Source: an uncultured Verrucomicrobiae bacterium (lineage in GTDB: Bacteria > Verrucomicrobiota > Verrucomicrobiia > Palsa-1439). Taken from it: DNA of 64,000 nt. The stretch is from assembly GCA_963817685.1 (NCBI GenBank), contig CAWFPN010000010.1, positions 450,852 through 514,851 on the forward strand, given 5' to 3'. The position numbers and the translations under genes were made by a program. Of the stretch, positions 1,434 through 28,854 are shown piece by piece; the first letter of the stretch is position 1; every line of letters starts with the position of its first letter. The notes under the pieces are model-generated. The model was not told the origin of the DNA and did no database searches. It worked only from the letters and a program-made list of their open reading frames with translations.

Positions 1434-4400
1434 CTAGTAGTTGACGATGATGTAGTTGGTGCCGGCACTGCTGCCGAGCGCGCCCTGGATGTGAACGCGG
1501 CCGGTGCTGGTGTCGTAATCGCCGCCGGACGGCGTGTAGCTCACCCCGTTGGTCACCACGCTGGAAGGCGTGGTGTTGGTCGGGATGCGCAGCCACAGGT
1601 CGTAATTCAGCGAGCCGCTGGTCTTCTTGTTGATATCAGCGCGCGTGCTGCTACCGACTTCGCTGATGGCGATGTCGTAGTACTGGCCCTGCGAGAACAT
1701 GTTGCTGAAGCCCATGGAACTCCAGCCATCAGGCAGCTTGGGTGCGAAGTAACACGTATTGTTGTTCGTGCCTTCCGGTTTGTAATCCAGGAACATCATC
1801 ATCTCGTCGACGAGTGTGGATTCCGATTCCCAGACGTTGGGCCACGCGGCCTGCAGCCAGAAGTTCGGATACTTCTGCTGGCCACTGCCCGAGATCTGTT
1901 CGGCGGCCAGGCCGCAGAACCCGAGACGCGAGACGAGGTTGCTCAGTGAGGTCAGGTTGACGTCGATCAGCCCCTTGCCGCCGACGAAATCCTGCCAGCG
2001 CGCATTGAACTCACCGTACCAGGACGTGCACAGGAACCACGGGCCGCCGTTCCAGTAGGTGTCGGTCCCGCCGGTGATCGTGTGCTTGTACCGTCGCCAG
2101 TAACCGCCGGTATTGCCGATCGCATCGCCGTCGCTGTCGGTGGACTCGACCTGGAGATCGTCGTTGTACCCGCCGGCCGCCGCGCCGTTGCCATGGAGCC
2201 ATTGCGCGACAGCCTGCATTTGACTGCTCGTAGGCGTGAAGACTTCAAACGGCACGCACATGCCGAGCTGACTGATGTCAGACGGTTCAACACGGGCGTT
2301 GACGCGGTTGGTGAGGCCGCCGACGATAGTGGCTGCCTGATTGGTCCAGATGGTGAACTCGGTATTGGAGCCCACGACCAAGGCCAGGTTGGCGGCATCG
2401 CGCAAACCGCGCACGATGGCGGCGTTGGAGTAGAGGAAGTCATCCCACTGGTCTTCCCAGATGTTGTTGCCGTGCATCAGGTTGTTGGCGAAGTCCCAGT
2501 AGGCACGGTTGTCGATGCAACTGCTCCAGTAGCTGGCGTAGGCCGCTGACTCCGCCAAGCCATAGTAGTTGCTCACGAACGACCCGTCGCCAGTGGTCAA
2601 GTAGTGGTAGTACAACGTCCACGGCACGCCGGCGGTTTCGTCCATCTGCGGGCCGGTCCATGCCTTGTTGCCGTCCGTCATATACTTCTGGTAGAAGAAC
2701 TCCTTGCCGCCAGGATTACAGTTGGTGCTCACCCGGTAGGCCACGTCGCGCAGGAAGTGGTAGAAATTCGCCGCTTCCTTCGTGTGACCGGTCTTGTCCA
2801 GCGTGATCGCCGCATACTCGCCGTCACGCGGCCAGCTGTACGGATAACCGCCGTTATGCATGCCGGCGATGATCGCGCCGGTCACCGCGTCACAGTGCAG
2901 CGCCGTCACCAGCAGGGCGCGTTTGAACACTGTGTTATACGCGTCCACCGGGAAGTGGGCTGTCACGCCGCCGCTGAGCCAGTTCGACCAGTAGGTCTCG
3001 GTGTTGCCCTGCGCCGTGGCCATGCTGTTGGTGTAGAACCAATCGAGCATTGGCCGGCCCCAGTAGTTATGCGTCCCGGTGGCCCCGGCGAAGTCGTCCC
3101 ACGAACCGACAACCATCACGTCCACTTCGACAGGTGTGTTGGTCGGCAGCGTGATGCTCTTGCCGATCCAGCCTTCCTGGTTGTCGGTGCTGGTCGACGT
3201 GCGCCAACTGTCGTCGGCGGCCGACCCGTAGCCGCTGGCGGAATTGGTCACCAGTTTCATCGCGGTGCCGAAGTACACGGACATGAACTTGTCGTAGGAG
3301 GAATTGGCCGTTGGCTGCAATTCGGTCGCCGCGGTGCCGCCGTAACCGTTCGGATCGCAGTTGTTGCCCGTAACACTGCGGTCGGTGTTGTCGTACACCA
3401 CCATCGCGTTCTCGTTGTTGTACGTGTCGTAATACATCGAGTTATAGGCGTTACAGCCCTTCACGTTGAAGTTCGCGTTGTAGTAGAAGTAGATCGTCTG
3501 CGGGGAACCGGACTGATTGTTCAGGATGTAGCGTTTGACGTACACGCCGAAGTTGGTCCTGGTGCCATCGGTCACGATCGGCAACGCGTTGGTCGCGGGG
3601 CAGAAGTCGTACTGCACGACCTGGATGTTCTGCCCGGCGGCGGTCAGTTTGTTGGAACTGATGACCACGTTGTTGTCCTTCTCATACGCCTGGCTGACGT
3701 TGACGTAATCGGTGCCGTTGGTGTTCTTCATCCAATACATCGCGTTGGTGCCGCCACCCGGGATGGCGATGCCGGCCATGGCGTTGATCACGTTCATCTG
3801 ACCATTGGCTTCCTGGTCGAGGCCGGGGCAGTACGGGTTCTCTTCCGGCCCGCGATAGCCTTCACAGGCGGTGTCGTTGCCGTTGCGGATGCCGACACTC
3901 GGGAAGTAGATGTCGTACAGCGAGCCGTTCATGTCCAGCATGGCCGAGATGAAGCCGTTGCCGATCACGGCCTCTTCCGCCCAGTGGTAAATCCGGCTGG
4001 CCGGATCGCTGGCGTAACCGGTGTTGTAGCCCGGCCATTGCAGCAGGGCGATGTTGGTCACCGTCAGGCTGCAGGTCGAAGCGCACCCGTTGCTGTCGGT
4101 CACTGACAGGCTCAACGTGAACGTGCCGGAGTTGTCCCAGTTGACGTACGTTGTCTGGTTGTTGCCGCCGTCGTCCAGCGTCCCATTGCCGCTGATGCCC
4201 CAGGAATACGTACTCAACCCGGACGGCCCGGAGTAGCTGTTACTGACCGAATTCGGATAGACCTGGTTCGGTCCCGTGATCAAACAGGACGGCAGCGCAT
4301 TGACCGTCACGGTCAGGTTGGACGTGCTGCTGCTGCAGCCGGTGATCCCGCTGACGGTCAACGACAGCGTGAACGAGCCTGCGCTCGTCGCGTTGGCCGT

Positions 4401-7400
4401 GACCGATTGCGTATTGGTCGGCGCGGTGAGCGTGCCGTTGCCGCTGATCGACCAGAGGTACGTCAGGCCGGCGCCGCTCGGGCCGGTATACGTGCCGCTG
4501 GATCCCGAGCACATTGAGCCCGACCCGCTAATGGCGGCCGGTAGGATCGTGTAGACGGTCACGGGGAAGGTGCAACTGCTGCCGCAGCCACTGTACGTCG
4601 TCGTATACGTCAGCGTGTAGCCGCCGGAGCTTGAGCCGGAAGCGACCGTCACCACGTTGGAGCTCCCGCCCGAGACAATCGCCGCCCCGCTGGAATTGCC
4701 CGAGAGCGTCCAGTTATAGGAATAACCCGCTCCGGTTGGGCCTGAGTAGCTGTTCGTTGTATTGATGCAGTTGATGCTCTGGCCCGTGATCGGCGAGCAC
4801 GTCGGCGCCGTCGTGACCGGGATATTCGTGGAACTGCTGCTGCTGCAACCCGGCGGGGTGCGCAGGCCGTATACCACGAGATTGCTCACGGTGGTGGCGA
4901 CATACACCCTGCCGTTGGCGATCGTGGGTGAGGTGAACTTGTTCATGTTGCCCAGGAAATCGCCGGGCAATTGGGAGCTGTCCCACAGTTCCTGCGAGAT
5001 ATTTTCGGCATTGTACGCGTAGAGCGTGCCGTTGGGGTAGTTGGTCAGGCCCCAGATGCCCCAGAGAATCCCGCTGCCCGGCTTGTTGCCGATAGCCGAA
5101 ATCGAGATTCCGCCTGTTTCAGCGTCAAACTGCGTTACGACGCCCGAGATCTCGTTGTTCGTCAGGATGCTGGAGCCATTGAACTGCCACTGCCTCAGAA
5201 CGTCATTGCCGCTCCACATGTAGATGAACTGGTTCGTCGGTCCGCACCAGTAGAGTGGCCCTGGTCCGACCGGGTCTGTTGCGGCGATCGCGTTGCTGAT
5301 GATCTCGACCGCAGCATAGTCGCCGCCCGCGTTATACCCGCCCAGATGGTTCTGGTTGAGCAGGTACATAAACCCGGTCTTGATGACGCTGACGATCATG
5401 TTGGTGGTCGGCAACACCAGCGGCCCGTCCGTGCCAACATCGAAGTCGTTATAGTTGTAATAGTTCTGGTTGAACGTGGTGAACCAGTCGGACAGGGCGA
5501 TCTGGCCATATGTCGTGTTGAATTTGAGCCAGGATTCACCCATGTCGGTGCCGCCGGTGGCCTTGGTGAAATCACCGTTGCCCGTGCAGGCGTAGATGTT
5601 TCCGGCGGCGTCGGCGGCCAATCCCTTGCCGGATTGCCAGATGGAGCCGTCATTGCCGTCGGGTGAGGTGCAGTAGACCGCCACTTGCGCCAGGTTGGTG
5701 GCATTGTAGCCAAACAACCAGCCGTGGAACGGATCCCAGTCGCAGTGCGAGCCATAGGCGATATAAACGACACCGTTCATCAACAGCAATCCGGGCCGGT
5801 TGCCCTCATGCAGCGCATTGAACGTAAACGTGCCGCCCGAGCTGTCAATGCCCGCTCCCGAGAGCGTGGCCGTGACCAGCACCGGTCCGCCGAATTTCTC
5901 CGCGCCGGTCTTGATGTCCAGCGCGTGCAACCGGTTATACCAAAGGCCGCTCTCCTTCGTCTTGGCGCTCACATACAGCGTGCCGCTTGCCGGATCGATC
6001 ACGGGCGTGCCCGTAATGCCGATCACCGGCTCGATCCCGCTCACGCAGACATCTCCTTGCTCATCCAGAATGTCGGTGACAGGCACCGCCGGACCCAGGT
6101 TGACCTGCCACAGCGGGGTGGGAATCGCCCCGGTGCCGTCAAAGGCGTAAACACTGTTATTTTCCGTGCAGACGTACACGGCGTCGTGGGTGCCGTTGGA
6201 GAAGCTCACCGCGTGCACGAAGAGCGGCTGCGCGTAAATCTGGCCGTCCACGGCGCGGGAGAAGAGCTTGCCGAACGTGTTGGTGTTGACGTTGGAGGTG
6301 TTCAGGAAGAACTCGTTCAGATTGGCGCCATGACGCATGGTGTTGTTGCCCTGGGTCAATACGCTCACACCCGCGTCCGACGGCTGGGTCACGGTCACGT
6401 TCAACGTCACCGTTCCGCTCGGTCCCGCCACGAAGGTGATCGTGGGCGTGTCCTGTCCGGCCGTGATGGTGCCGTCATTGATCGTCCACGTGTATTGCCC
6501 ACCCGTGATGGCCGGCACAGAGGCGGTGTTGGTGGTCGAATTGCCGCAAGCCGAAGTCGGCACGGTAATCGTGGGCGTGGCAGGACTCGCGTTGGCTGTG
6601 ACATTGGCCGAACCGCTGCTCGAACAGCCGCCGCTGCCGGTCACCGTCACGCTCAGCGTGACCGTGCCGCTGGCGCCGGCGGTGAATGTGATCAGATTGG
6701 TCGTGGTCGAGCTGGTGATCGTGCCGTTGGTGATGCTCCAGCTATAGGTCGCGGCCGGGCTGGCCAACGGCACCCAGGCAGTGTTGCCCGTGGAACCGCC
6801 GCACACAGACAATGGCGCGCCAATCACGGCCGACGGCGTGACATTGACCGTCAGGACCGCGTTGGTGGAGGTGACGCTGCGACCGCAATTGTCGCTGACC
6901 GTCACCTGATAGGTGCCTCCATCGTTCGGTTGCGCGTTGGAGACCGCCAGGGACCCGCTGGTCGCGCCGGCGATGGTCGAGAGATTGCCCGACGGGCCGT
7001 TGGTCAACGTCGCCAGGCCGCCGTCGGTCTGATAGTTCCAGCCGCCGTCATAGGCGTGGTCCGACGCGTTGTCGGTCTTGCCGCCGACGCTCATGTTGTT
7101 GAAGTACGTATCCTGCGTGGCATCACTGGATCCCGGATTGAAGTCAAACAGCCGCACCCGGTCGATCACCGTTCCGGTGGTGCTGGCCAGGTAGCCGGTG
7201 ACCGTCGAGCTGGTGAACGCGCCCGGAGTCACCGGGCTGATGGTCACCGAATACGTGTTGGTGCCGGTCAACGTGAAGGCGATCTGCATGCCTTGGAGGG
7301 TCCATCCAATTCCGGAGTCCGTGCCGCCCTGCCCATTGGTGTCCGTGATGCTGTAGTCCGTGTTGCCGGACTTGAAGAAGAATTCGAACCGGTTTTGTCC

Positions 7401-9839
7401 GCCCGGGTTCTGCAGGCCAAAGCCCACGGATTGGGCGGCGCCGTTGGGCAGATAACCGTTGTTCATCTGGATCGTGAACGTCTGGCCGATGGCCATGCTG
7501 CCGTTAAACAATCGCAGCGCTTCCGTGAAGTTGTGACTGGCGGCCCACATGCCCCAGGACCTTTCACAGCCTGCGCCGCAAGCCGTATCGATGCCGCCGC
7601 GCCCGTTGTTGGTGGAACTGCCCGTGAAGAAGCCGCCGATGGTCCCCTGGTTGTTCAGTTGCCAGCCGTTCAGGCCCCAGCCGAATTTCTTCCAGGTATA
7701 ATTCAGCCCGGCGATGTCCGACGCGGTGACAGAGAGCGTGCCGGTGTTGCCGGTGCAGACGGCGGTATTGGTCGGCTGCTGCGATATGCTCGGCGCCGAT
7801 GTGGCCACCGTCACGGCCTGCGAGCAGGAACTGCTGCAGCCGTTGCTGTCGGTAATTGACAGACTCACGGTGAAGCTATTCGAGGCCCCGCCGTTGACGT
7901 AAACGGTCTGCTGGGTGGTGCTGCCGGTGAGGGTGCCACCATTGCCGGTGAGCGTCCAGGAATAGGTGCTCAGCCCCGCCGGACCGCTATAGCTGTTGCT
8001 GCTGGATGAGGGGCAGGCATAGCTCAATCCCGAGATCGAGCAACTGGGCAACGGATTGACGGTGATCGTCTGGTTGCAAACGCTGTTGGAACAGCCGTTG
8101 ATCCCGCCCACCGTCAACGTCAGCGTGAACGTACCAGAACTGGTGGCGTTGACGTACACCGATTGCGCGTTTGTCGAGCCGGTGAAGGTGCCGTTTCCAG
8201 AAATCCCCCACGCGTAGGTCAGCCCGGCGCCGGATGGCGCGGTATAGCTGTTGCTGACCGAATTGGCGCACACCGCGCTTGCCCCGGTGATGGAGCACGG
8301 AGCCGCCGTGCTGACAGTGACCGTGTTGCTGCAGACCGTCGAACAGCCGTTGGTCGTCGTCGTGAGCGTGAGTGTATAAGTACCCGAACTGGCCCCCGCG
8401 CTGACCGACACCGATTGACTGCTCGACGAACCCAGGATCGACGCGCTGGCACCGCCGCCGCTGGCAAGCGACCAACTGTACGTCACGCCATTCGGGCCGG
8501 TGTAACTGTTGGTGCTGGTGACGCAAACCGGGTTGGCGCCCGAGACCGAGCAGGACGGATTGGCGTTGACCGTGAGCGTGACGGAGCATTGTGTTGTGCA
8601 GCCCTTGGAATCCTGCACCGTGCAAGTGTACGTGCCGGCCGTACCGACACTGATGGTGGCATTGGTGGAGGTAAAGGCGCCCGGGCCCGACCAGGAGTAG
8701 GTGTAAGGAGAGGTTCCGCCGCTGGGGTTGGCCGTAAAGTTCTGGGTTGAATTGGAGCAAATCGTCGCGCTGGACGGACTGATCGAACAGGTTGGCGACG
8801 AATTGACGGTGACAATGTTGCTGCAGGTGGTGGAACAACCGTTGTTAGTAATCAGCAGGTTCACGGTGTACGTGCCGGACGAACTGCCGTTGTTGACACT
8901 GACGGTCTGGTTGGTGGTCGGCGCCACGATGGTCGCCCCTGTGTTGGTGGCCGACAGCGACCAACTGTAGGAGGTCATGCCCGCCGGGCCAGAGTATGTA
9001 TTCTGCGTGCCGGTACAGTTGGAGCCGGCGGTCTGCGTGATGGCGCACGGTGGATTGTTATTGCACGACAGGCTCATGTAGTTGACGAAAAAGTCCGTCG
9101 AGCCGCCGCCGCCGGCAGGATTATAATGAAAACACCGCACCTGGCTGATCGCATTGTTCACCGTCCCGGTCAGCGTGCCGGAGATATTGGTGCTGACACC
9201 GTTGACCAGGCGTTTGATGGTCACTGAGTATGTGTTGCTACCCGTCAGGGTAAATGCGACAGACAGCCCGCCGTCAGTCCAGCCAAGGCCTGTGTCCTGG
9301 CCATATCCCCTGGCGTCGTGAATGTAGTAGTCCGAAGCGCCCGCCGTAAAATAAAGTTCAAACCGGTTGACGGAGCTGGAATCCTGCAGCCCAAACCCCT
9401 GCGACGCGTTGTTGCCGCCCGAACTGTTCAGATAACCGGTGTCAAAATCGATGTCGAACACCTCGCCGCTGATCATGCCTCCGGTGAACGGCCGGATCGC
9501 CTGCGCCGTCGCGCCGCTGTTGGCCCAAATCCCCCAAGCCTGAATGCCGCTGCTGCTGTTGGTGCAATTAATGCCCGGACCGCCGCCGCCGCCATTGTTG
9601 TCGGAGTTGCCCACGTAGAACCCCTGATTGGCGCCGCTGCTCAACTGCCACGCCCCAAAACTCGTCCCCCCATTGGCGCCGTTGGTCCAACTGCCGTTGT
9701 AGAGCGAACTGCACGCGTTGTCGCTGCCGGGATTGGAGGCCGACGCGTTGTTGATCGCCAGTAACGCCGCCATTGATATTGACGCCGCCAGGGTTTTGAC
9801 AGAGGTTGCGGCCACGGATGACAGAAATTGCTTGTTCAT
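1434..9839 (-). CDS. Giant secreted multidomain protein: Ig-like Cys-rich repeats, beta-propeller and GH15-like glycoside hydrolase
   Basis: 2801-aa uninterrupted ORF with a Sec signal peptide (MNKQ...AINNASA). It has about 16 copies of an ~80-aa four-Cys Ig-like module, one carrying the SprB-type GGTSPYTYSW signature. A PQQ/BamB-like propeller sits in the middle. The C-terminal GH15-like region contains GYPYSWPRDGEY and NIWEDQWD motifs. Confidence 0.9.
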   Translation of the reverse strand: MNKQFLSSVAATSVKTLAASISMAALLAINNASASNPGSDNACSSLYNGSWTNGANGGTSFGAWQLSSGANQGFYVGNSDNNGGGGGPGINCTNSSSGIQAWGIWANSGATAQAIRPFTGGMISGEVFDIDFDTGYLNSSGGNNASQGFGLQDSSSVNRFELYFTAGASDYYIHDARGYGQDTGLGWTDGGLSVAFTLTGSNTYSVTIKRLVNGVSTNISGTLTGTVNNAISQVRCFHYNPAGGGGSTDFFVNYMSLSCNNNPPCAITQTAGSNCTGTQNTYSGPAGMTSYSWSLSATNTGATIVAPTTNQTVSVNNGSSSGTYTVNLLITNNGCSTTCSNIVTVNSSPTCSISPSSATICSNSTQNFTANPSGGTSPYTYSWSGPGAFTSTNATISVGTAGTYTCTVQDSKGCTTQCSVTLTVNANPSCSVSGANPVCVTSTNSYTGPNGVTYSWSLASGGGASASILGSSSSQSVSVSAGASSGTYTLTLTTTTNGCSTVCSNTVTVSTAAPCSITGASAVCANSVSNSYTAPSGAGLTYAWGISGNGTFTGSTNAQSVYVNATSSGTFTLTLTVGGINGCSNSVCNQTITVNPLPSCSISGLSYACPSSSSNSYSGPAGLSTYSWTLTGNGGTLTGSTTQQTVYVNGGASNSFTVSLSITDSNGCSSSCSQAVTVATSAPSISQQPTNTAVCTGNTGTLSVTASDIAGLNYTWKKFGWGLNGWQLNNQGTIGGFFTGSSTNNGRGGIDTACGAGCERSWGMWAASHNFTEALRLFNGSMAIGQTFTIQMNNGYLPNGAAQSVGFGLQNPGGQNRFEFFFKSGNTDYSITDTNGQGGTDSGIGWTLQGMQIAFTLTGTNTYSVTISPVTPGAFTSSTVTGYLASTTGTVIDRVRLFDFNPGSSDATQDTYFNNMSVGGKTDNASDHAYDGGWNYQTDGGLATLTNGPSGNLSTIAGATSGSLAVSNAQPNDGGTYQVTVSDNCGRSVTSTNAVLTVNVTPSAVIGAPLSVCGGSTGNTAWVPLASPAATYSWSITNGTITSSTTTNLITFTAGASGTVTLSVTVTGSGGCSSSGSANVTANASPATPTITVPTSACGNSTTNTASVPAITGGQYTWTINDGTITAGQDTPTITFVAGPSGTVTLNVTVTQPSDAGVSVLTQGNNTMRHGANLNEFFLNTSNVNTNTFGKLFSRAVDGQIYAQPLFVHAVSFSNGTHDAVYVCTENNSVYAFDGTGAIPTPLWQVNLGPAVPVTDILDEQGDVCVSGIEPVIGITGTPVIDPASGTLYVSAKTKESGLWYNRLHALDIKTGAEKFGGPVLVTATLSGAGIDSSGGTFTFNALHEGNRPGLLLMNGVVYIAYGSHCDWDPFHGWLFGYNATNLAQVAVYCTSPDGNDGSIWQSGKGLAADAAGNIYACTGNGDFTKATGGTDMGESWLKFNTTYGQIALSDWFTTFNQNYYNYNDFDVGTDGPLVLPTTNMIVSVIKTGFMYLLNQNHLGGYNAGGDYAAVEIISNAIAATDPVGPGPLYWCGPTNQFIYMWSGNDVLRQWQFNGSSILTNNEISGVVTQFDAETGGISISAIGNKPGSGILWGIWGLTNYPNGTLYAYNAENISQELWDSSQLPGDFLGNMNKFTSPTIANGRVYVATTVSNLVVYGLRTPPGCSSSSSTNIPVTTAPTCSPITGQSINCINTTNSYSGPTGAGYSYNWTLSGNSSGAAIVSGGSSNVVTVASGSSSGGYTLTYTTTYSGCGSSCTFPVTVYTILPAAISGSGSMCSGSSGTYTGPSGAGLTYLWSISGNGTLTAPTNTQSVTANATSAGSFTLSLTVSGITGCSSSTSNLTVTVNALPSCLITGPNQVYPNSVSNSYSGPSGLSTYSWGISGNGTLDDGGNNQTTYVNWDNSGTFTLSLSVTDSNGCASTCSLTVTNIALLQWPGYNTGYASDPASRIYHWAEEAVIGNGFISAMLDMNGSLYDIYFPSVGIRNGNDTACEGYRGPEENPYCPGLDQEANGQMNVINAMAGIAIPGGGTNAMYWMKNTNGTDYVNVSQAYEKDNNVVISSNKLTAAGQNIQVVQYDFCPATNALPIVTDGTRTNFGVYVKRYILNNQSGSPQTIYFYYNANFNVKGCNAYNSMYYDTYNNENAMVVYDNTDRSVTGNNCDPNGYGGTAATELQPTANSSYDKFMSVYFGTAMKLVTNSASGYGSAADDSWRTSTSTDNQEGWIGKSITLPTNTPVEVDVMVVGSWDDFAGATGTHNYWGRPMLDWFYTNSMATAQGNTETYWSNWLSGGVTAHFPVDAYNTVFKRALLVTALHCDAVTGAIIAGMHNGGYPYSWPRDGEYAAITLDKTGHTKEAANFYHFLRDVAYRVSTNCNPGGKEFFYQKYMTDGNKAWTGPQMDETAGVPWTLYYHYLTTGDGSFVSNYYGLAESAAYASYWSSCIDNRAYWDFANNLMHGNNIWEDQWDDFLYSNAAIVRGLRDAANLALVVGSNTEFTIWTNQAATIVGGLTNRVNARVEPSDISQLGMCVPFEVFTPTSSQMQAVAQWLHGNGAAAGGYNDDLQVESTDSDGDAIGNTGGYWRRYKHTITGGTDTYWNGGPWFLCTSWYGEFNARWQDFVGGKGLIDVNLTSLSNLVSRLGFCGLAAEQISGSGQQKYPNFWLQAAWPNVWESESTLVDEMMMFLDYKPEGTNNNTCYFAPKLPDGWSSMGFSNMFSQGQYYDIAISEVGSSTRADINKKTSGSLNYDLWLRIPTNTTPSSVVTNGVSYTPSGGDYDTSTGRVHIQGALGSSAGTNYIIVNY
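1437..4037 (-). other. GH15 (glucoamylase/glucodextranase-like) N-domain plus (alpha/alpha)6 catalytic region of the giant protein
   Basis: aa ~1935-2801. Motifs: IGNGFISAMLD...(N-domain), SWPRD, [DN][IL]WE[ED], and GGPWFLCTSWYGE near the end. Family assignment is by motif recognition only. Confidence 0.6.
4860..6347 (-). other. PQQ-like / BamB-like beta-propeller region of the giant protein
   Basis: aa ~1165-1660. Motifs include ...DGQIYAQPLFV...VYVCTENNSVYAFD...LHALDIKTGAEKFGGPV...KFTSPTIANGRVYVAT.., with a repeated blade-like pattern. Confidence 0.5.
7086..7694 (-). other. Uncharacterised ~200-aa domain, copy 2 (inside giant protein)
   Basis: aa ~716-918. It aligns by eye with copies at 9066-9707 and 13514-14206. 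Shared blocks: W..NG..GG, WG.WA, F.G....G..F.I..(D/N)(T/N)GY, GFGLQ, NRFE(L/F)(Y/F)F..G..DY.I.D, G(L/I)GWT..G...AFTLTG.NTYSVTI, (Y/F)FN.MS. Confidence 0.6.
9066..9707 (-). other. Uncharacterised ~200-aa domain, copy 1 (N-terminus of giant protein)
   Basis: aa ~45-258, directly after the signal peptide. Same conserved blocks as copies 2 and 3. Confidence 0.6.
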
Positions 9840-9863
9840 GGTATTCCTCGCTGGATTTGGAAG

Positions 9864-10340
9864 CTATTTGACGTTGCCTGCCGGCGCGCCATAACTGGCC
9901 CCGGTCACAAGCGCCCCGCTCACCGCCGAATCGGCGCCAATCGTGATCACCCACTCGCTGTCACCCGACAGCACCGCCTGTTGCGCTCCGAGATAGGCTG
10001 AGATCCCCCCGTCCGCGCTGTCAATGTGTGCACTGTCCGACACCGGCCCCATCACGTACACCCACACTGTCTTCGTTTCCCCCGCATTCACCACCCCGTC
10101 CCAGTTCAACACCGGATCAACCGTTGCCGCCGCCGCCGAGGAGGCCACCGCCGTCCGGCAATTCCACACCGCCCAGTGCGACGCGTTGGTTGATTGATTG
10201 ACGAAACTGACGCGCGCCCACGTCCAGCCATTGGCGTCCTGCACCGCCCGCCAACTCTGCGCAAAACACCGCCCGCCCCACAGACCGGCTGTAAACGTCA
10301 AAAGAACAATTACAATGATGCGTTTGATTCCAGTGTTCAT
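9864..10340 (-). CDS. Small secreted protein of unknown function
   Basis: An internal ATG at 10340 is preceded by aaaggag. The signal peptide is MNTGIKRIIVIVLLTFTAGLWGGRCFAQ. The gene ends 24 nt upstream of the giant gene start, so the two are probably co-transcribed. Confidence 0.6.
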   Translation of the reverse strand: MNTGIKRIIVIVLLTFTAGLWGGRCFAQSWRAVQDANGWTWARVSFVNQSTNASHWAVWNCRTAVASSAAAATVDPVLNWDGVVNAGETKTVWVYVMGPVSDSAHIDSADGGISAYLGAQQAVLSGDSEWVITIGADSAVSGALVTGASYGAPAGNVK

Positions 10341-10684
10341 GAACACTCCTTTGGGTTGACTGTAGGAAGGACCGGGGAAAAGAAAACGTCTGCACGTATC
10401 ACGGACAACCTGGCCACTCGTCGTAAGGGTTCGCAAAATATTCTCCTGCTGACCGGTGAGATGAATAGCACAAGCGGTTTTTCTTGTCTGCCGCCTGAAG
10501 GGTGATAGTTGTGTAACCGAAAAGGCTACGACAAAATACAGTCTCACTAAAACAGGAAAGCCCCGCCGTGGTGTGGCAGACGTTGTGGAATCGCGGACAG
10601 ACGTCAGGAACGCTTCTCTGAGCAAGAGATGGCTACGGTACGACGGTCTTCACCATTGCTTGAGCGATAGACCGTGCAGAGCGA

Positions 10685-11437
10685 CTATTCCCCCGGCTTG
10701 TCAGCCGGAGAGAACCAATGGGCCTTCTTTTGCGCCTCTGGCAGACCGCCGCTCTCCCGCCATTGGACGGCGTGCTGCAGCACTTCCGTCGCACTACTGA
10801 GGTTGAGCTTCTCCTTGATCCGCGTCCGATAGGTCTTCACGGTGTTGACATCAAGGTGCAGCGTAGCGGCAATTTGCCGCACCCCTCGGCCGTGACCGAT
10901 GAGATGAAATACTTCCAGTTCCCGGTCGCTGAGCAAATCCATCGGGGCAACCAATGAAAGTTTTCCCCGGTGTGCGCATTGTTGCGCCAGCCGGGACTTG
11001 ATTGCCTCGCTCAGATAAAAACCCCCGTTCAGAACCAGTCGAACCGCTTTAACAAGACTGACGATCGCAGCCTGTTTATTGATGTAACCCTGGGCCCCGG
11101 CCTGCAGTGCGCGTTCGGCCATCAAAACGTCATCGTGAAGGGAAATCACCATGATCAGCAGTTCTGGATAACGACCTTTAAGTTCCTTAATGAGTTCCAG
11201 ACAGAGGACGCCCTTCAAATTCAAATCCAGCAAAATGAGCTTCGGTCGCAGACTCTCGACTGCCGCCAAGGCCTCGGAAACGTCCTCCGCCTCTCCGCAT
11301 ACTACAAGATCCCGCTGTTCATCGATCGTGGCTCTCAAGCCCTTTCTAAGAACCGGATGATCATCGACGATCAAAATTCTCGCCTTTTGATGAGCGGCCC
11401 GCTGTCCGGACCCTTCGATGGGAGATACCTGTCTCAT
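10685..11437 (-). CDS. NarL/FixJ-type response regulator (REC + LuxR HTH), orphan
   Basis: REC domain ..ILIVDDHPVLRKGL...LILLDLNLKG.. and C-terminal LuxR-type HTH ..LSDRELEVFHLIGHGRGVRQIAATLHLDVNTVKTYRTRIKEKL... An alternative start lies at 11461. No adjacent histidine kinase. Confidence 0.85.
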   Translation of the reverse strand: MRQVSPIEGSGQRAAHQKARILIVDDHPVLRKGLRATIDEQRDLVVCGEAEDVSEALAAVESLRPKLILLDLNLKGVLCLELIKELKGRYPELLIMVISLHDDVLMAERALQAGAQGYINKQAAIVSLVKAVRLVLNGGFYLSEAIKSRLAQQCAHRGKLSLVAPMDLLSDRELEVFHLIGHGRGVRQIAATLHLDVNTVKTYRTRIKEKLNLSSATEVLQHAVQWRESGGLPEAQKKAHWFSPADKPGE

Positions 11438-11735
11438 GGCGACACCCCACAGAACGGGCAATCATAGAGAATCGCTGAAAGCGATTCTTGAACCCTTGGA
11501 AGCATCAAGAGCCCGGGTAAGAATTTGAGGGCACATTTCACGGGTGTCACCTTCCCGCAGCTACCCTCCGGCGGTCTGGATTTTCACTATTACCAGAGCT
11601 GCCGGCCCCTTGTCAAGAGCCGACGGACCCTGGTAGGAATGAGCCAAAGACCTCGATCACAACTCAAAAACCGGGTATCAAACCCCCTCAAGCATCCGAC
11701 GGAGTGGTTGAACAAGCCCGATGCTAAATGAACGA

Positions 11736-11770
11736 TTGACAGCCGCACGAGAACATGTTATCGTTAACAT
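11736..11770 (+). promoter_or_regulatory. Candidate sigma70-like promoter overlapped by a LacI-family operator
   Basis: TTGACA at 11736-11741. A 16-bp near-palindrome atgttaTCGTtaacat (11755-11770, 14/16 symmetric, central CG) lies about 90 bp upstream of the LacI-family gene. Confidence 0.4.
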
Positions 11771-11857
11771 TATAGGCTTTCTTAGAGGAAGCGCGTTTTA
11801 TAAACATTTGTCGGCCACACAGCCCAATCACGACATTGAGGAAATTGCAGACGCAGC

Positions 11858-12919
11858 ATGCCTGAGATTAGAAAAAGGTACACCATCAGAGACATTGCCG
11901 AGCAAAGCGGCGTTTCGATCTCGACGGTTTCCATGGTCTTGAACGGCAACCCGCGCGTCCGCGCTACGACGCGCGACCGGGTGCACAAGACAATCCAACG
12001 GCTGGCGTATCAGCCGAACCGGATGGCCCGCGCCCTGGCGTGGCGCCGCAGCCGGACCCTGGCCATCCTCATCCCGCAAATCTCTCGCGCCTTTGCCGAC
12101 GTTTATTTTGGCGAGATTGTCAGCGGTATTTACGACCGCGCCAGCAAGCTCGGTTACAAGATCATGCTCGAAGTGGCCAGCTCGAAATTCATCGAGAGCA
12201 AGGAATACCTGGAACTGTTCGACCAGAAATTTGTCGACGGCATTTTGATGATCGGCGCAAACGCGAAACACGACTTTCTGTCGGAGATGGTGGACATCTC
12301 ACGCCCTTTGTTGATGGTCAACAGCTACTCCATGGAGTGGGACGCGAATTACGTGGTCTCGAATTACCGGTATGGCGCCTGGCAGGCGGCGCAGCATCTG
12401 GTGCAATTGGGGCACCGCCGGATCGGGTTTATCGCCGGCGGCATTGGGACGATCCAGACAAGCCAGGATGTCTGCGAATCGTTCAATGAAGTACTGCGGG
12501 AGTGGGGGATCGATCAGGACCCGCGATTGATGGCGGACGGCCTGTTGACGGAAGACGGCGGCATGAAGGCCGCGGAGCAACTGTTGCGGTACGATTCACA
12601 GATCACCGCCATGTTTGCGCTGAACGACAAGATGGCGCTGGGCGCGATCAAGAAATTGAATGAACACGGCCTGCAGGTGCCACGCGACATTGCGGTCGTC
12701 GGCTTTGATGATATTCCGCTGGCCAGTTACTCGATTCCCAGCCTGACGACAGTGCATCAACCGCTGTACGAGATCGGCAAATTGAGCTGCGAGCGCCTGA
12801 TCGAGTTGATCCACGGGAGGATCGACCGGGTCAACGAAGTGCTGCCGATCTATTTGGTCGTACGCGATTCCTGCGGCGCCAGGCTCAAGCAGAACCAGAG
12901 CGTCGTGGCGCGGGTCTGA
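11858..12919 (+). CDS. LacI-family transcriptional regulator
   Basis: N-terminal HTH ..YTIRDIAEQSGVSISTVSMVLNG...RVHKTIQRLAYQPNRMARAL.. followed by a periplasmic-binding-protein-like sugar-binding fold (..VDGILMIG.., ..AVVGFDDIPLA..). Confidence 0.9.
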   Translation: MPEIRKRYTIRDIAEQSGVSISTVSMVLNGNPRVRATTRDRVHKTIQRLAYQPNRMARALAWRRSRTLAILIPQISRAFADVYFGEIVSGIYDRASKLGYKIMLEVASSKFIESKEYLELFDQKFVDGILMIGANAKHDFLSEMVDISRPLLMVNSYSMEWDANYVVSNYRYGAWQAAQHLVQLGHRRIGFIAGGIGTIQTSQDVCESFNEVLREWGIDQDPRLMADGLLTEDGGMKAAEQLLRYDSQITAMFALNDKMALGAIKKLNEHGLQVPRDIAVVGFDDIPLASYSIPSLTTVHQPLYEIGKLSCERLIELIHGRIDRVNEVLPIYLVVRDSCGARLKQNQSVVARV

Positions 12920-13114
12920 ACAATCACGGCGTATGGGTATTTGCCGCCGCATAGAGGCCAACTTCAACCGCTTGGACATCGGGTGTCTGCTCCAAACTCG
13001 CAACACTTCCTGTCGTTTTGATCCACAGGAGGCGTATCCACGCGGTCCTTGGCGGTTGGACCTTGAAAAAACAGGCACTCCCCCCAGCCCTCTGATAAAT
13101 GCTACCAGAGAGGT

Positions 13115-13158
13115 TGGAGGCGGGTATCGGAATCGAACCGATGATAAGAGTTTTGCAG
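13115..13158 (-). tRNA. tRNA-Cys(GCA) 3' half only (truncated; candidate att-site remnant)
   Basis: The minus strand reads CTGCAAA-ACTCT-TATC-ATCGG-TTCGATT-CCGAT-ACCCGCC-T-CCA. That is an anticodon loop with GCA, 3' anticodon stem, 4-nt variable loop, perfect T arm, acceptor 3' strand, U73 discriminator and CCA. No complementary 5' acceptor strand, D arm or 5' anticodon stem lies upstream. Confidence 0.6.
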
Positions 13159-13288
13159 GCTGGCCGGATGGGGTCTTGAACGTTTCCCGCTTTAGCGGGG
13201 ATTATTCGGAAGGTCTTTGTTTTCAAGCGATTGGGAAATTCCTGCAAACACAAGCAAACTTAGAAACAACTCGAAATCTGAAGCACAA

Positions 13289-13312
13289 GTGGTATCCACG
13301 TGTGGTATCCAC
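13289..13312. repeat. Tandem direct repeat of the dyad-symmetric 11-mer GTGGTATCCAC
   Basis: Copies at 13289-13299 and 13302-13312, separated by gt. Each has GTGG/CCAC arms and the junction forms CACGTG. Confidence 0.6.
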
Positions 13313-13510
13313 TTCGCCACGCGTCACATTGTCATTTCTTGCGGCAGGCGGGGCCTGCCGAGGTAGCAAGTGTCAGCATGGAGCAGAGAGAGGAGCGCAG
13401 CCAAGGCTTAGGTCATCTGGCTGTGAACACGGGTTGTTTTGTTCACGGTTTCATTGCGCTCGGCTGCGCTCCGCATCATCGCCAAGGTTTCCTTGGCTGG
13501 GGCGCGGAGA

Positions 13511-16500
13511 CTACGGACCTCCACTTGGAATGATGCTCATCCTGTTGAAGTATAGGTTGTAGTTCGGCCCAAACCCATCCTGTTGATTGTATAACGAGAT
13601 ACTGTTGATTTCCGACCCCGCTTGACCGCCGAGAGTCCCGCTAATATTTGTGGAAGCTCCACTGACTAGAGCGGTGACGGTGCAGGAGAAGCTGTCTACT
13701 CCGGTGAGGGTAAAATTCACTATCACTCCTCCATCGGTATATCTGATTCCTGTGTCGATCAACGGTTGAACGGAGTTGGTGACGATGTTGTAATTGGTCT
13801 TACCGCCGATGAACAAAAATTCGAACCGCTCCCCAAAGTTCTTGTTTGTTGTGACATTGCCGCTGCGCAGTACGAACCCAACCACTCCAGGGGTGGTAGT
13901 CAAAACGTACCCATTGTCCATCCCAATGCTGAACGTATCGCCGACATTCAGGGGGCCGTCTGTGAAACTGCGGTAGGCTGCCGCCGTGACGGACAGGTTG
14001 TTATTCGTATTGCCGTACAACCCCCATGAGACTGGGGTGCTGGATGCATTGGTCGTGTTGATTCCCCCGCCACTGGGGATTGTGCCATTCTCGGTGGCGT
14101 TCCCGATGAAGAAGCCTGTGTTGCTCGAATTAGTGCTGGGGCTCATGGTCCAGGGACTAAACCCCGTCCCGCCGTTGCTGCCGTTTGTCCAGCCGCCGCT
14201 GTAGGCGGGATCCGCGGCGTTGTCGGAAGGGGGCGGGGCAACGAGCGCGATTCGGTAATAACGCGTTGGTCCGTTGGTCGCGCCTCCGATGTCGGTGTAA
14301 TTTGTACTGGTGACGCCAAGGGGGACGCCAATCATTGGGCTCAGGTCCAGGAAATTATTGGAGTAGCCGCCGCCCGCCGCGCTGGAGGCGACCTGCACCA
14401 CGTTGGTCGTGCCTCCGAAGGTTGTCCACGTGAGAAGGATATTGTTGCCTTGTTTCACGATGCTGCTGATCTGGAAGATGGGAGGCGCCGGGCCGCCCAG
14501 AATGGTGCCGTTGTTGATGAAGGCGGCGTGGAAATTCGTCTTGCCGGCGGTGATGTCGATTGTGCCGTTATTGACCACGGTGCCGTAGGCTTCCAGCGTG
14601 CTGTTCGCGATGGCCCGCATCGTGCCGTAGTTGGTGACGATGCCGCTGAAGGTCAGCGTCCCGCCGCAATCAGACAGGATCGTGCCGTTGTTTTGCACCG
14701 TCACGAAATTCTGCACCGTGCCACAGCCTTCGATCAGGCCTGTGCTGCCGTTAACGTAGAGGCTGGCCACACCGCTGCCGCCCGTGTCCTCGCCGCGCAG
14801 CGTACCGTCCTGCAGATAGACCGTGCCCGCATTGGTAGGGAACTTCGCTCCTGAATTGTACCAGGCGTTGTCGGTGCGGCGGATGACCAGCGTGCCGCCG
14901 GTGTCCACCATCATCGTGCCATTGCTTCCATTCTGCACGCCGCCGAAATTGAATGCATCCTGAGGCAACAGTGTCAACGTGTCGCCGCTGGCCGCGCTGA
15001 TCATCCCGAAGTTGACGATCGCATAATTGAACTGGTTCGTGCCATAGCCCGTCTGGAAGGTGCCGCTGCCCGTGATCAACCCGGTCGCCGTATTGGTGAA
15101 ATTGGTCAAACCGCCCGTGTTCGGCATCGAGATGATGCCGCCGTTGATGTCCAAGGTGCCGACCAGGGTGTAAAATGGCCCCCCGGCATTGGTGCTGGAC
15201 AACGTCAGCGCCGCGCCGGGGTCAACCAACACGGTTCCTTGGACGTTTGCAGAGGGGAGGTAGGCGTTGCTCAGACTGGCTGTCACATTGGTGGCAATCT
15301 CCAGCAGGCCGCCCGCGTGGACCGCCCAGAATCCGCCCTGCGTGGTAATCGGCCCGGTGACCTTCAACTCCCCGCCGGTGACTGCAAGGTAGCTTCCGTA
15401 CTGGCCGTTGCTCGGGGCGTAGACGGCCTGTCCGCTGGCAAAATTGCCGTAGATGTTCAGCACGCCATTGCTGGCGACGGTGAAGCCGCTGGCCGGTTGA
15501 ATCACCGAGGCGGCCAGCGTGCCTGAACCAAGGATCGTGCCATTGTTCTGGATGGCTCTCGCCACATTTTGCGTGTCCGTGTCCGTGTCAGCCACCGTAA
15601 GCATGCCCCCGTTCATCAGCAGGACGCCGGTGTTAAGCGGCGGAACATTAGTCGCCGATGCACTGGCTGTCCATGCATTGTCCATGCGCGAGATCGTTAC
15701 CGTGCCGGTGGTTGCCTCGATCAGCCCCGCGTTTGTCGCGAGACCGGCCACCAAGCCGGAATTGCTGACGAACACAACGCCGCCGGTGCCGACGGTCAGA
15801 CTGGTAAGGATCTGCAACGGCGTGGCCGTACCCGCATTATTCAGGAACAGCGTGTTGGTCGAGCCAGACGGGGCGGACACGGTCAGGTAGTTGATCGTCA
15901 GCGCGCTCGGGGTACCGGTGGTGACGGCGTCGATGGTCACGCTCTTGGTGTTGGCGTTGGTGAGAAAATCGCCGAGATCAGTGACGAGCGGCGCCGCACC
16001 GAACGACCAGTCGCCGGCGGTCTCCCATTTGCCGCCGCTCGCATTGGTCCAACTGTTGTAAAGGGGATTAAACAGCGGGATGACGGTCTTGCAGGCGTCC
16101 ATCAGCAGATTCACGACTCTATTCGTATTGGTGGAAATCGTCGATGAACCGGTATTGGTAATGGTCAGACTGCCAAAGGCCCAACTCGCATTGGGCACGG
16201 CCGTGAGCTGCACCGTATTACTCATGGTGTACTCCGGTTCGAGCGGGACGGCATTGACCACGCCGCCGCTGGCCGGGATGATATACAAGCGAGGCATGAG
16301 CGAACGCGAGTTGGTCGGGTCGGTCCCGTCGATGTACTCGCCATAATTCGACACGCCGTCACCGTCAGCGTCCGCATCAGGATTAACGCCCGTCGCGCCA
16401 AAATACCTCATTTCCCAGGCCACCGGCAACCCGCTGCCGTCCGGATCAAAGTACGAGACGTTGATCACCGCGCTGGTCACCGCGCCGGCGCTGTTGCTCG

Positions 16501-16837
16501 CGATGAGCTGGTAATTGCCCAAATTGCCCGCCGTGGCGTCGGTCAACAGAAATGAATCATTCGTGGCCCCGCCCACCACCCCGCCATCGAACAGCCACTG
16601 ATAGGTAAATCCCCCTACCCCCGTCACCGGCGCGGAAATCGCCAGCACCCCATTGGAATCCGCCCCCATATACTGCGGGTAAAACTGCTGAAAAGCCGGT
16701 CGCGCCACGGCCACGACATTGCTCTGCGCTGTCAAATTGCCCGGTAAATCATATTGAAAAGCTACCTGCGCCTCCACCGGCGCAACCATCGCCCACAAAA
16801 ACGCAATCGCAAAGAACCTGGAAAGAGGATGGCGCAT
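13511..16837 (-). CDS. Secreted adhesin-like protein with Ig domain, Ca-binding TSP3-like motif and autotransporter-associated beta-strand repeats
   Basis: 1108-aa ORF with signal peptide MRHPLSRFFAIAFLWAMVAPVEAQ. Ig-like segment ..YQWLFDGG...GNYQLIASNSAGAVTSAVINVS.. and DADADGDGVSNYGEYIDGTDPTN. W.NASGGKWETAGDWS is followed by many GT(L/V)T(I/F)..G-type beta-helix repeats. The C-terminus is copy 3 of the uncharacterised domain. Confidence 0.85.
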   Translation of the reverse strand: MRHPLSRFFAIAFLWAMVAPVEAQVAFQYDLPGNLTAQSNVVAVARPAFQQFYPQYMGADSNGVLAISAPVTGVGGFTYQWLFDGGVVGGATNDSFLLTDATAGNLGNYQLIASNSAGAVTSAVINVSYFDPDGSGLPVAWEMRYFGATGVNPDADADGDGVSNYGEYIDGTDPTNSRSLMPRLYIIPASGGVVNAVPLEPEYTMSNTVQLTAVPNASWAFGSLTITNTGSSTISTNTNRVVNLLMDACKTVIPLFNPLYNSWTNASGGKWETAGDWSFGAAPLVTDLGDFLTNANTKSVTIDAVTTGTPSALTINYLTVSAPSGSTNTLFLNNAGTATPLQILTSLTVGTGGVVFVSNSGLVAGLATNAGLIEATTGTVTISRMDNAWTASASATNVPPLNTGVLLMNGGMLTVADTDTDTQNVARAIQNNGTILGSGTLAASVIQPASGFTVASNGVLNIYGNFASGQAVYAPSNGQYGSYLAVTGGELKVTGPITTQGGFWAVHAGGLLEIATNVTASLSNAYLPSANVQGTVLVDPGAALTLSSTNAGGPFYTLVGTLDINGGIISMPNTGGLTNFTNTATGLITGSGTFQTGYGTNQFNYAIVNFGMISAASGDTLTLLPQDAFNFGGVQNGSNGTMMVDTGGTLVIRRTDNAWYNSGAKFPTNAGTVYLQDGTLRGEDTGGSGVASLYVNGSTGLIEGCGTVQNFVTVQNNGTILSDCGGTLTFSGIVTNYGTMRAIANSTLEAYGTVVNNGTIDITAGKTNFHAAFINNGTILGGPAPPIFQISSIVKQGNNILLTWTTFGGTTNVVQVASSAAGGGYSNNFLDLSPMIGVPLGVTSTNYTDIGGATNGPTRYYRIALVAPPPSDNAADPAYSGGWTNGSNGGTGFSPWTMSPSTNSSNTGFFIGNATENGTIPSGGGINTTNASSTPVSWGLYGNTNNNLSVTAAAYRSFTDGPLNVGDTFSIGMDNGYVLTTTPGVVGFVLRSGNVTTNKNFGERFEFLFIGGKTNYNIVTNSVQPLIDTGIRYTDGGVIVNFTLTGVDSFSCTVTALVSGASTNISGTLGGQAGSEINSISLYNQQDGFGPNYNLYFNRMSIIPSGGP
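13514..14206 (-). other. Uncharacterised ~230-aa domain, copy 3 (C-terminus of 1108-aa protein)
   Basis: AYSGGWTNGSNGGTGFSPW...WGLYG...FSIGMDNGY...GFVLRSG...ERFEFLFIGGKTNYNIV...GIRYTDGGVIVNFTLTGVDSFSCTV...ISGTLGG...LYFNRMSI. Same block order as copies 1 and 2. Confidence 0.6.
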
Positions 16838-28448: not shown

Positions 28449-28715
28449 CTAATTGTTCTCGGCCGGCAGCAAGATGTACCTCTCCCTCACCATTTCCCAA
28501 GCCTGATCCTGGGCCTGCTGCGGCGTGAACCCCTGCTCGGTCAGTTGCCGGCGAATCGCGTCCATTTCGTCCTTGGTCTTCTCCTCGGCCTCCAGAAGCA
28601 TCTGCTGCAGCGTGCTCGTCCGCTCCATTTCCGCCACCATCCGCGACCGATGCACGCGCCAGTGTTGTTCCGCCATCAAGCCGTATTGAGTCAGTGTGCT
28701 CATGTGAGTCTCCAT
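28449..28715 (-). CDS. Small helical protein (88 aa), possibly the displaced N-terminus of the methylase-helicase
   Basis: The translation is protein-like (..YGLMAEQHWRVHRSRMVAEMERTSTLQQMLLEAEEKTKDEMDAIRRQLTEQGFTPQQAQDQAWEMVRERYILLP..). The third-codon position is strongly G/C-biased in this frame. The overlapping frame gives Gly/Arg/Asp-rich low-complexity text. Confidence 0.6.
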   Translation of the reverse strand: METHMSTLTQYGLMAEQHWRVHRSRMVAEMERTSTLQQMLLEAEEKTKDEMDAIRRQLTEQGFTPQQAQDQAWEMVRERYILLPAENN

Positions 28716-28854
28716 TGCCCGAAAACAAATCGAGTTGATCTTGTTGCCGTCCCTTTGACCGTTTGAGAGTCATTGGTTAAATCGCGTGCCACATTTCCCC
28801 TCATCTGAGGGCATTTTGCTACGGGGGGATTTAGCCATGATTCGCTGGTGGAAC

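Follow-up and report, generated by a model that had tools for sequence, protein, structure and literature searches.

What is the domain that occurs three times in two giant secreted proteins of an uncultured Verrucomicrobiae bacterium, and what does it do? The question arises from a stretch of 64,000 nucleotides of contig CAWFPN010000010.1 (here called the window), in which a first-pass annotation, made from the sequence alone, had noticed three similar segments within a protein of 2801 amino acids (aa) and another of 1108 aa. We found that all three segments represent a single autonomous extracellular domain, ~215-230 residues long, for which a concanavalin-A-like jelly roll is predicted, and that one of the copies is circularly permuted and inserted in a loop of an immunoglobulin (Ig) domain. 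A role as a carbohydrate-binding or adhesion module is plausible. The copies and the genes that carry them are as follows, with positions in the domain given by its hidden Markov model (HMM).

1434..9839, minus strand: host gene 1, for the 2801-aa secreted multidomain protein (from the open reading frame (ORF) list and its translation)
9042..9734, minus strand: copy A, aa 36-266 of the 2801-aa protein, domain HMM positions 1-215, standard topology
7083..7691, minus strand: body of copy B, aa 717-919 of the 2801-aa protein, hmmsearch positions 20-216, N-terminal signature motif absent
7017..7082, minus strand: displaced signature motif of copy B, aa 920-941, KTDNASDHAYDGGWNYQTDGG, motif HMM positions 4-23
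1998..3005, minus strand: catalytic region like glycoside hydrolase family 15 (GH15, the glucoamylase family), aa 2279-2614 of the 2801-aa protein
13511..16837, minus strand: host gene 2, for the 1108-aa secreted protein
13514..14236, minus strand: copy C, aa 868-1108 of the 1108-aa protein, HMM positions 3-218, standard topology

The segments as first delimited (aa 45-258 for copy A, aa 716-918 for copy B and aa 878-1108 for copy C) were compared by pairwise BLASTP with composition-based statistics, a formal test that had been named beforehand as a possible refutation. All pairs align significantly, at 42% identity for A and B (E 2e-43), 38% for A and C (E 2e-36) and 34% for B and C (E 1e-26), and 50 columns, W, R, F and Y among them, are invariant when the three are aligned together, so the repeat that had been proposed is real. 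Its boundaries had been placed roughly right, although those given by the HMM are slightly wider (A 9042-9734, C 13514-14236, B 7017-7691). The host proteins had also been described as neighbouring, but their genes are not adjacent: ~3.7 kb lies between them, with three other genes, namely a small secreted ORF, a LuxR-type response regulator and a LacI-type regulator. When all six frames of the window were scanned with the three-copy HMM, only these three copies were found; a further giant ORF of 2359 aa (54891-61970, minus strand) is without one.

Both host proteins have N-termini that look by eye like signal peptides. In the 2801-aa protein the signal peptide is followed by copy A, a PKD_6/K319L-like PKD array, the Ig domain with copy B nested in it, further Ig/PKD domains, ~520 residues without a Pfam match, more PKD and the GH15-like C-terminal region. 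Its Pfam matches are PKD_6 (4.8e-36), K319L-like_PKD (2.2e-18), Glyco_hydro_15 (9.8e-13, over aa 2310-2614) and Ig fragments, and the GH15-like region also matches the NCBIfam model TIGR01577, oligosaccharide amylase, at 2.7e-23, which is far below the cut-off of that model. The ~520 residues without a Pfam match, between the Ig/PKD arrays (~4740-6300, aa ~1180-1700), look from their sequence like a beta-propeller, with repeated Gly/Trp-rich strands (VYVCTENNSVYAFDGTG...).

The 1108-aa protein has a signal peptide, an Ig-like segment, a TSP3-like Asp-rich segment, a long Gly/Thr/Asn-rich repeat region, a small domain ending ...RYYRIALV and, at its extreme C-terminus, copy C; weak Flg_new_2 and TSP3 matches are all that Pfam gives for it. 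An identical protein, P0139, is recorded elsewhere. The ~80-aa domain with the ending ...(R/Q)(F/Y)YR(V/I) at 14240-14500 (aa ~790-867) is without a Pfam match, and in several relatives (P0001, P0003, P0063) it is found directly before or after the domain described here.

The permuted copy nested in an Ig domain

Judged by sequence, the standard form of the domain, represented by copies A and C, begins with the signature DNAxDxAYxxGWxNGxNGGxGFxxW and continues with the body. Copy A has this motif as DNAC..LYNGSWTNGANGGTSFGAW, followed by the beta-sandwich body, and copy C has DNAADPAYSGGWTNGSNGGTGFSPW, likewise followed by the body. In copy B the match to the domain HMM starts at position 20, and the missing piece, DNASDHAYDGGWNYQTDGG, directly follows the C-terminal strand: the copy ends ...YFNNMSVGGKTDNASDHAYDGGWNYQTDGG, with the signature (HMM positions 4-23) immediately past the last strand. 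Because the displaced motif follows the last strand, copy B is a circular permutation of the domain, in which the first ~20 residues of the motif are at the C-terminal end of the body and the whole unit is inserted in an Ig-domain loop. The first-pass annotation had described one ordered set of blocks in all three segments; this order holds for copies A and C, but in copy B the first block, (Y)..G.W.NG.NGG.GF..W, is out of register, since the N-terminal piece of this copy sits past its C-terminus. The internal position of copy B had been recognized, while its permutation and its nesting inside an Ig domain had been missed. The two halves of the host Ig domain flank the unit:

7692..7793, minus strand: N-terminal half of the host Ig domain, aa 683-716, strands A-C, ending ...LNYTWKK
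6840..7016, minus strand: C-terminal half of the host Ig domain, aa 942-1000, ...SLAVSNAQPNDGGTYQVTVSD...AVLTVN

Pfam detects Ig_3 at aa 683-721, corresponding to profile positions 2-40 of 78, and I-set at aa 961-991, corresponding to profile positions 55-85 of 90. An AlphaFold2 model of aa 676-1000 has a mean predicted local distance difference test score (pLDDT) of 89.8 and a predicted template-modelling score (pTM) of 0.84, with pLDDT of 93-98 in the Ig halves (93-97 in the C-terminal half) and ~91-93 in the trailing motif. In this model the flanks of the copy B body are predicted to form together one complete Ig sandwich, and a Foldseek search with it returned I-set Ig proteins as well as concanavalin-A-like lectins. 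In the trailing motif a strand reaching the D of DNA is followed by a short helix at HAY, elements that the N-terminal motif of copy A also has. Judging from sequence, secondary structure and the confidence of the models, the two motifs would be equivalent in three dimensions.

The same arrangement recurs across relatives at the level of sequence. Sixteen aligned nested units have a conserved order of Ig strands A-C ending Y.W(R/K)K, the body, a D(N/D)A..Y..W..G motif and Ig strands E-G, with D248 invariant and A250, W259 and G266 nearly so. When we considered copies with no other copy directly behind them, the signature motif was found directly past the C-terminus in 28 of 32 N-truncated copies versus 13 of 153 N-complete copies (Fisher p=4e-19, odds ratio 75). 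The signature of the Ig C strand was directly upstream of 32 of 40 N-truncated copies and of none of 173 N-complete copies. The occurrence of the standard form beside the permuted, Ig-nested form makes this family a clean natural example of permutation coupled to domain insertion.

Fold, family and distribution

An AlphaFold2 model of copy A, with an alignment of 72 sequences as input, has a pLDDT of 93.8 and a pTM of 0.91, and consists of 17 strands and one short helix, in agreement with the beta-sandwich that had been suspected from the sequence. Foldseek finds 237 matches to this model in the PDB at E<=1e-3, and concanavalin-A-like jelly rolls make up nearly all of those listed, including legume lectins, the lectin-like bean alpha-amylase inhibitor, calreticulin and polysaccharide lyase family 7 (PL7) alginate lyases (E ~1e-5 to 1e-6). 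The top template-modelling (TM) score, 0.53/0.55, is that of 6yp6, with a root-mean-square deviation (rmsd) of 5.5 Å over 221 columns and 14% identity. The domain is thus predicted to be a concanavalin-A-like (legume-lectin-type) jelly-roll beta-sandwich, a fold of two curved antiparallel sheets and ~200-250 residues. Because identities are ~10% and TM-scores 0.4-0.55, we assign it to this fold and to no single family within it.

We searched Pfam-A (2025 copy), NCBIfam 20.0 and the PDB sequences, and as first supposed the domain matches no named family, either as single copies or as a 72-sequence profile. The isolated copies have no match in NCBIfam or among PDB sequences, and none in Pfam at E<=10 other than a single weak one, of copy B to Lipocalin_4 (E 0.015), which we dismissed as stray. 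The profile finds nothing meaningful among PDB sequences and no lectin at E<=10, and no Pfam family covers the domain in the 72 aligned members at E<=1, aside from a stray match to BgaA-like_CBM in one of the 72 (E 0.0014). Apart from this match there is none to a model of any carbohydrate-binding module (CBM), so membership in a CBM family of CAZy does not follow from sequence. Lectin_legB, the Pfam legume lectin family, matches neither the single copies at E<=10 nor the 72 members at E<=1; LamG and Laminin_G_3 are absent from the Pfam matches of the host proteins, the copies and the 72 members; and no profile of a carbohydrate-active enzyme (CAZyme) or peptidase family matches the domain. 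In the literature on PEP-CTERM proteins, lectin-like folds and the Verrucomicrobia and Planctomycetes we found no description of it. The domain therefore appears to be a sequence family without a name, with a known fold.

This is a large family. By word-indexed profile search we obtained 70 proteins, mostly of 255-290 aa and made up of a signal peptide, the domain and a PEP-CTERM tail, and an exhaustive HMMER search of 1.84 billion representatives, clustered at 50% identity, returned 3,331 clusters at E<=1e-3 and 1,279 at E<=1e-30. Giant proteins among the HMMER matches have up to 8 matched stretches, as in P0071 (3454 aa). In a set of 211 sequences, 127 proteins have one copy, 49 have two, 28 have three, five have four, one has five and one has eight. 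A scan of one genome per species with the three-copy alignment gave 50 loci, most of them in metagenome-assembled genomes (MAGs) of Verrucomicrobiota; further loci are in Planctomycetota (Phycisphaerales, Tepidisphaerales, Bythopirellula), Lentisphaerae, Kiritimatiellae, Bacteroidota (Saprospiraceae, Lewinellaceae) and Anaerolineales. With at least 3,300 sequence clusters of a lectin fold that are nameless in Pfam and NCBIfam, the domain marks a gap in annotation and is a straightforward target for a new Pfam or CBM-type family.

The partner domains in 36 long relatives include PKD_6, HYR, I-set/Ig_3, PA14, SprB, cadherin-like, FG-GAP and GSDH domains and type IX secretion system (T9SS) tails. 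These varied architectures, with one to eight copies per protein or the domain alone with a PEP-CTERM, VPDSG-CTERM or T9SS tail, show that the domain is clearly the independent, shuffled module that had been proposed, and each window copy is nearer to copies in other organisms than to its siblings. The N-terminal copy of P0072 shares 81% identity with copy A, and copy C is 57-62% identical to the standalone PEP-CTERM proteins P0002, P0003 and P0006, while the window siblings are only 18th to 125th in one another's match lists. Given that they rank below copies from other organisms, the three copies represent old subtypes and not a recent local duplication.

The PEP-CTERM tail marks proteins for sorting by exosortase (PMC3237569). 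Tails in the 72 aligned sequences are PEP-CTERM in 42, VPDSG-CTERM in five and T9SS in one, and the PEP motif is present in 77 of 119 short members. None of the features of PEP-CTERM, namely the PEP motif, the transmembrane helix and the basic cluster, is present in the window copies. Copy C ends ...YFNRMSIIPSGGP (IIPSGGP) at its stop codon, with no PEP-CTERM anchor, and there is no degraded anchor downstream of it in any frame. Long verrucomicrobial proteins that end in the domain (L008, L015, L018) have a conserved tail, ...FFNSLQI(I/V)GP and then the stop codon, to which ...YFNRMSIIPSGGP and its stop codon at 13514-13540 correspond in the window. This stop is at the exact point where the standalone relatives run on into the (I/V)PEP of the PEP-CTERM tag.

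Across 345 instances of the domain, the near-invariant residues are D5 (99% where present), Y12 (98%), W16 (83%), G23, G25 and W29 (98%), R79 (99%) and N211 (94%), equivalent in copy A to D40, Y47, W51, G58, S60 (Gly in most members), W64, R116 and N253. The signature motif, which is the part displaced in the permuted form, contains six of the eight. The residues fit a sugar site rich in aromatic residues, Asp, Asn and Arg, or else a structural clasp.

Gene neighbourhoods and function

Between the host genes of the window is a regulator gene with an operator-like site upstream of it:

11858..12919, plus strand: LacI-family regulator (Pfam LacI, Peripla_BP_1, Peripla_BP_3)
11755..11770, no strand assigned: 16-bp palindrome ATGTTATCGTTAACAT, like a LacI-type operator, 88 bp upstream of the LacI gene

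The regulator is 66% identical to a LacI protein from a Verrucomicrobiia MAG (L006) and 44-48% identical to those of three loci that are all from Planctomycetota (L005, L030, L046). In each of the four, the LacI orthologue is directly beside a standalone family gene and divergently transcribed, so we regard the window LacI gene as context and as a possible regulator. Just downstream of LacI there is a GH13/CBM48 amylase in L005 and L046 and a CBM48x3/CBM53/CBM20 protein in L006; L005 also has a sugar ABC-transporter binding protein. Past its four family genes, L030 has a 1001-aa protein with a weak alpha-amylase match, and in L007 the gene after that of a 602-aa family member encodes a GH31 protein with CBM53. 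From a crude gene call and domain scan at 23 loci with short family members, the neighbours include LacI-family regulators (5), GH13 alpha-amylases (4) with CBM48 (3), GH5 (3, one with dockerin), GH53, fucosidase, prepilin-type N_methyl proteins (5) and TPR proteins (5). A Kiritimatiellae member adjoins exosortase EpsH/EpsI and exopolysaccharide genes. Standalone family genes also form tandem paralogue arrays, with four in a row in L030 (2353-6427) and pairs in L032, L034, L036, L045 and L046. The arrays of L032, L036 and L045 adjoin a GH5 protein (with dockerin in L036) and an orthologous ~270-aa protein, which in L032 has a prepilin-type N_methyl motif.

The ATGTTATCGTTAACAT-type site has one match in the window at three or fewer mismatches versus 0.08 expected by chance, and its place upstream of the LacI gene suggests autoregulation; it is absent from L006. 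Because this sole LacI-type palindrome of the window sits before the LacI gene, there is no direct cis link between LacI and the host genes here. A different 16-bp palindrome, GTTTAACCGGTTAAAC, occurs 28-209 bp upstream of family genes in three planctomycete MAGs, perfect in L030 (position 2144) and L046 (positions 5482, 5733 and 11052) and with one mismatch in L044 (position 4578). By our own calculation, chance alone would give ~3e-4 perfect sites over the 583 kb examined, and the palindrome is probably the operator of the adjacent LacI orthologue. In one case the palindrome precedes not a family gene but an ORF (L046:11110-12231) similar to the prepilin-type N_methyl protein of L032 (phmmer E 5e-16).

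The reading that we favour, by a modest degree, is that the domain is a non-catalytic lectin-like binding module that holds polysaccharide, either on the cell surface or appended to enzymes and adhesins. That it is a binding module rather than an enzyme is indicated by the one to eight copies per protein, the nesting in Ig domains, the partner domains and the invariant residues without a catalytic dyad. Surface display is indicated by the PEP-CTERM, VPDSG-CTERM and T9SS tails and by the member beside EpsH/EpsI, and the link to glycans by the fusion to GH15, by the LacI orthologues with their amylase and CBM neighbours and by the upstream palindromes. From the fold, the fusion partners and the gene neighbourhoods we infer glycan binding, and the identity of the ligand and the surface display are proposed in the same manner. 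Copies A and B would then tether the GH15 glucoamylase-like enzyme to its glycan substrate, or keep the substrate near the cell surface, and the 1108-aa protein and the many standalone PEP-CTERM relatives would present the domain as a lectin at the cell surface. The ligand of the window subgroup may be an alpha-glucan (starch, glycogen or dextrin), which is the weakest step.

Several observations weigh against glycan binding or its particulars. The likeness to lectins is at the level of fold only (TM 0.4-0.55, rmsd 5-9 Å, ~10% identity), and the concanavalin-A-like fold also houses lyases, glucanases, peptidases and protein-binding LamG domains. The conserved D, Y, W, R and N residues may line a pocket or may instead clamp the motif on the sheet, either being compatible with the data. 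Most giant relatives have no CAZyme domain, and the neighbourhood signal is mixed, with GH5, GH53 and fucosidase as well as alpha-glucan enzymes. The planctomycete loci may not be independent lineages, and there is no LacI-type palindrome in the window upstream of either host gene.

The main rival of glycan binding is a role in which the same fold serves protein-protein adhesion or scaffolding of a matrix, as in a surface layer, biofilm or floc, with no specific sugar ligand. Such a role has been proposed for other PEP-CTERM proteins and is known of LamG-type domains. The partner domains PKD, HYR, cadherin, SprB, FG-GAP and PA14 are typical of adhesins, small PEP-CTERM proteins are frequent in the family and at times form tandem paralogue arrays, such as the four in a row in L030, and one member is in an exosortase/exopolysaccharide locus. 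According to two reports, floc formation in Zoogloea and Aquincola needs PEP-CTERM proteins together with exopolysaccharide (PMC9012009, PMC9850573). Against a scaffold speak the fusion to a GH15 enzyme and the recurrent neighbours, which are LacI-type sugar regulators, GH13/CBM48, GH31/CBM53 and GH5, and this rival overlaps with glycan binding because the matrix roles of PEP-CTERM proteins themselves involve polysaccharide. We give this alternative about one chance in four.

A bolder form of the lectin-like reading is that this undescribed family is the main surface glycan-capture device of bacteria of the Planctomycetes-Verrucomicrobia-Chlamydiae (PVC) group, which we consider doubtful, slightly more so than the scaffold. 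The standalone forms would be lectins anchored through PEP-CTERM and exosortase, under LacI-type sugar control and alongside amylases and other glycoside hydrolases, with a function corresponding to that of the SusE/F-type surface glycan-binding proteins in Bacteroidota. The module would also have been built into giant enzymes and adhesins, with the permuted, Ig-nested form evolved as a stalk that presents the lectin. Verrucomicrobiota and Planctomycetota are major polysaccharide degraders, and how glycans are held at their cell surface is poorly understood. The domain is an obvious candidate for this task, being found in PEP-CTERM-anchored proteins, in giant surface proteins and next to sugar-regulated glycoside hydrolases. 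As the fold and the general role are familiar, we see the result as useful rather than surprising, with a sequence family that appears undescribed and a permuted, Ig-nested form that is unusual.

That the domain is itself catalytic, as a divergent PL7-like polysaccharide lyase, a GH16-type glucanase or an eqolisin-type peptidase, is improbable. Enzymes of these three types all share the concanavalin-A-like jelly roll, and the Foldseek matches include PL7 alginate lyases (8wok, 7w12, 7p25) and scytalidoglutamic peptidases (2ifr, 1s2b); one Arg, one Tyr and one Asn are nearly invariant. Against this, the 345 instances have no conserved His, no conserved acidic or Gln/Glu pair and no ExDxxE-type motif, with Glu121 conserved in 52% and Gln90 in 53%, which argues against an active site of the PL7, GH16 or eqolisin type. 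The catalytic Arg, Gln, His and Tyr set of PL7 is incomplete, as the domain has no conserved His or Gln, and the near-invariant R79, Y12 and N211 are in sequence contexts different from the PL7 motifs, with no Pfam match. Up to 8 copies per protein, some of them nested in Ig domains, would also be unusual for catalytic domains, and the absence of any profile match to CAZyme or peptidase families points the same way. We set the catalytic reading aside because catalytic-type residues are not conserved. Finally, the suspicion that the similarity is an artefact of low-complexity composition, which the Gly/Ser/Thr/Asn-rich, highly repetitive host proteins might raise, is ruled out with near certainty by pairwise E-values of 1e-26 to 1e-43 after composition correction, the 50 invariant columns, thousands of homologues with identical boundaries and the confident AlphaFold2 fold.

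We also noted other genes around the host genes. A 253-aa ORF without a Pfam match (9864-10625, minus strand), with an internal segment like a signal peptide (MNTGIKRIIVIVLLTFTAGLWGGRCFA), has the same orientation as the 2801-aa gene and ends 24 bp upstream of it. On the other side, at 16882-21879 on the minus strand, is a gene whose 1665-aa product resembles, from its sequence, a polymorphic toxin: it combines TPR and a peptidase C39-like domain with numerous RHS/YD repeats and, at the C-terminus, a divergent Gly-rich region. This gene ends only 44 bp upstream of the 1108-aa gene, which has the same orientation, so that co-transcription of the pair is possible. The immediate neighbours of the RHS gene include a phage-type integrase (22096-23310, minus strand) and a 1712-aa helicase-like protein (ResIII/Helicase_C; 23635-28773, minus strand), and the block of the RHS and 1108-aa genes may be at the edge of a mobile element.

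Comparison with known systems

In size and predicted fold the domain resembles the legume (L-type) lectins and their kin, such as ConA, PHA, Ulex lectin II, the bean alpha-amylase inhibitor and the carbohydrate-recognition domain of Emp47p. These have ~220-240 residues and the two-sheet jelly-roll sandwich that is predicted for the domain, and legume lectins and lectin-like proteins dominate the Foldseek list. They differ from it in sequence and in detail, with ~10% identity, TM-scores of 0.4-0.5, an rmsd of 7-9 Å and no Lectin_legB match to the domain. We know of no counterpart in legume lectins of the family signature DNAxDxAYxxGWxNGxNGGxGFxxW. Concanavalin A is a classic circular permutant of the other legume lectins, and this may be taken as a parallel to the two topologies found here.

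For the placement of copies A and B, the best analogue may be 6yp6, which a later paper describes as the lectin-like jelly-roll C-terminal module of the phage esterase NanS-p / vb_24B_21, with aromatic residues proposed for binding. The addition of such a module to an esterase would follow the same logic as the addition of copies A and B to GH15, although 6yp6 is 14% identical to the domain and has no sequence-profile link to it.

As PEP-CTERM/exosortase cargo, most short relatives share the plan of signal peptide, domain and PEP-CTERM tail, with one of them beside EpsH/EpsI; the tag is for sorting only and is uninformative on its passenger domain. In proposed role, the domain would be like the starch-binding modules CBM20, CBM48 and CBM53 and the SusE/F-type proteins of Bacteroidota, which are non-catalytic glycan-binding units on the surface or appended to enzymes and are likewise encoded beside GH13, GH15 or GH31 enzymes and a sugar-responsive regulator. 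Unlike CBM20, CBM48 and CBM53, the domain is larger and has no sequence match to any CBM model, and where SusE/F-type proteins have a lipid tail, the proteins with this domain are anchored by PEP-CTERM/exosortase.

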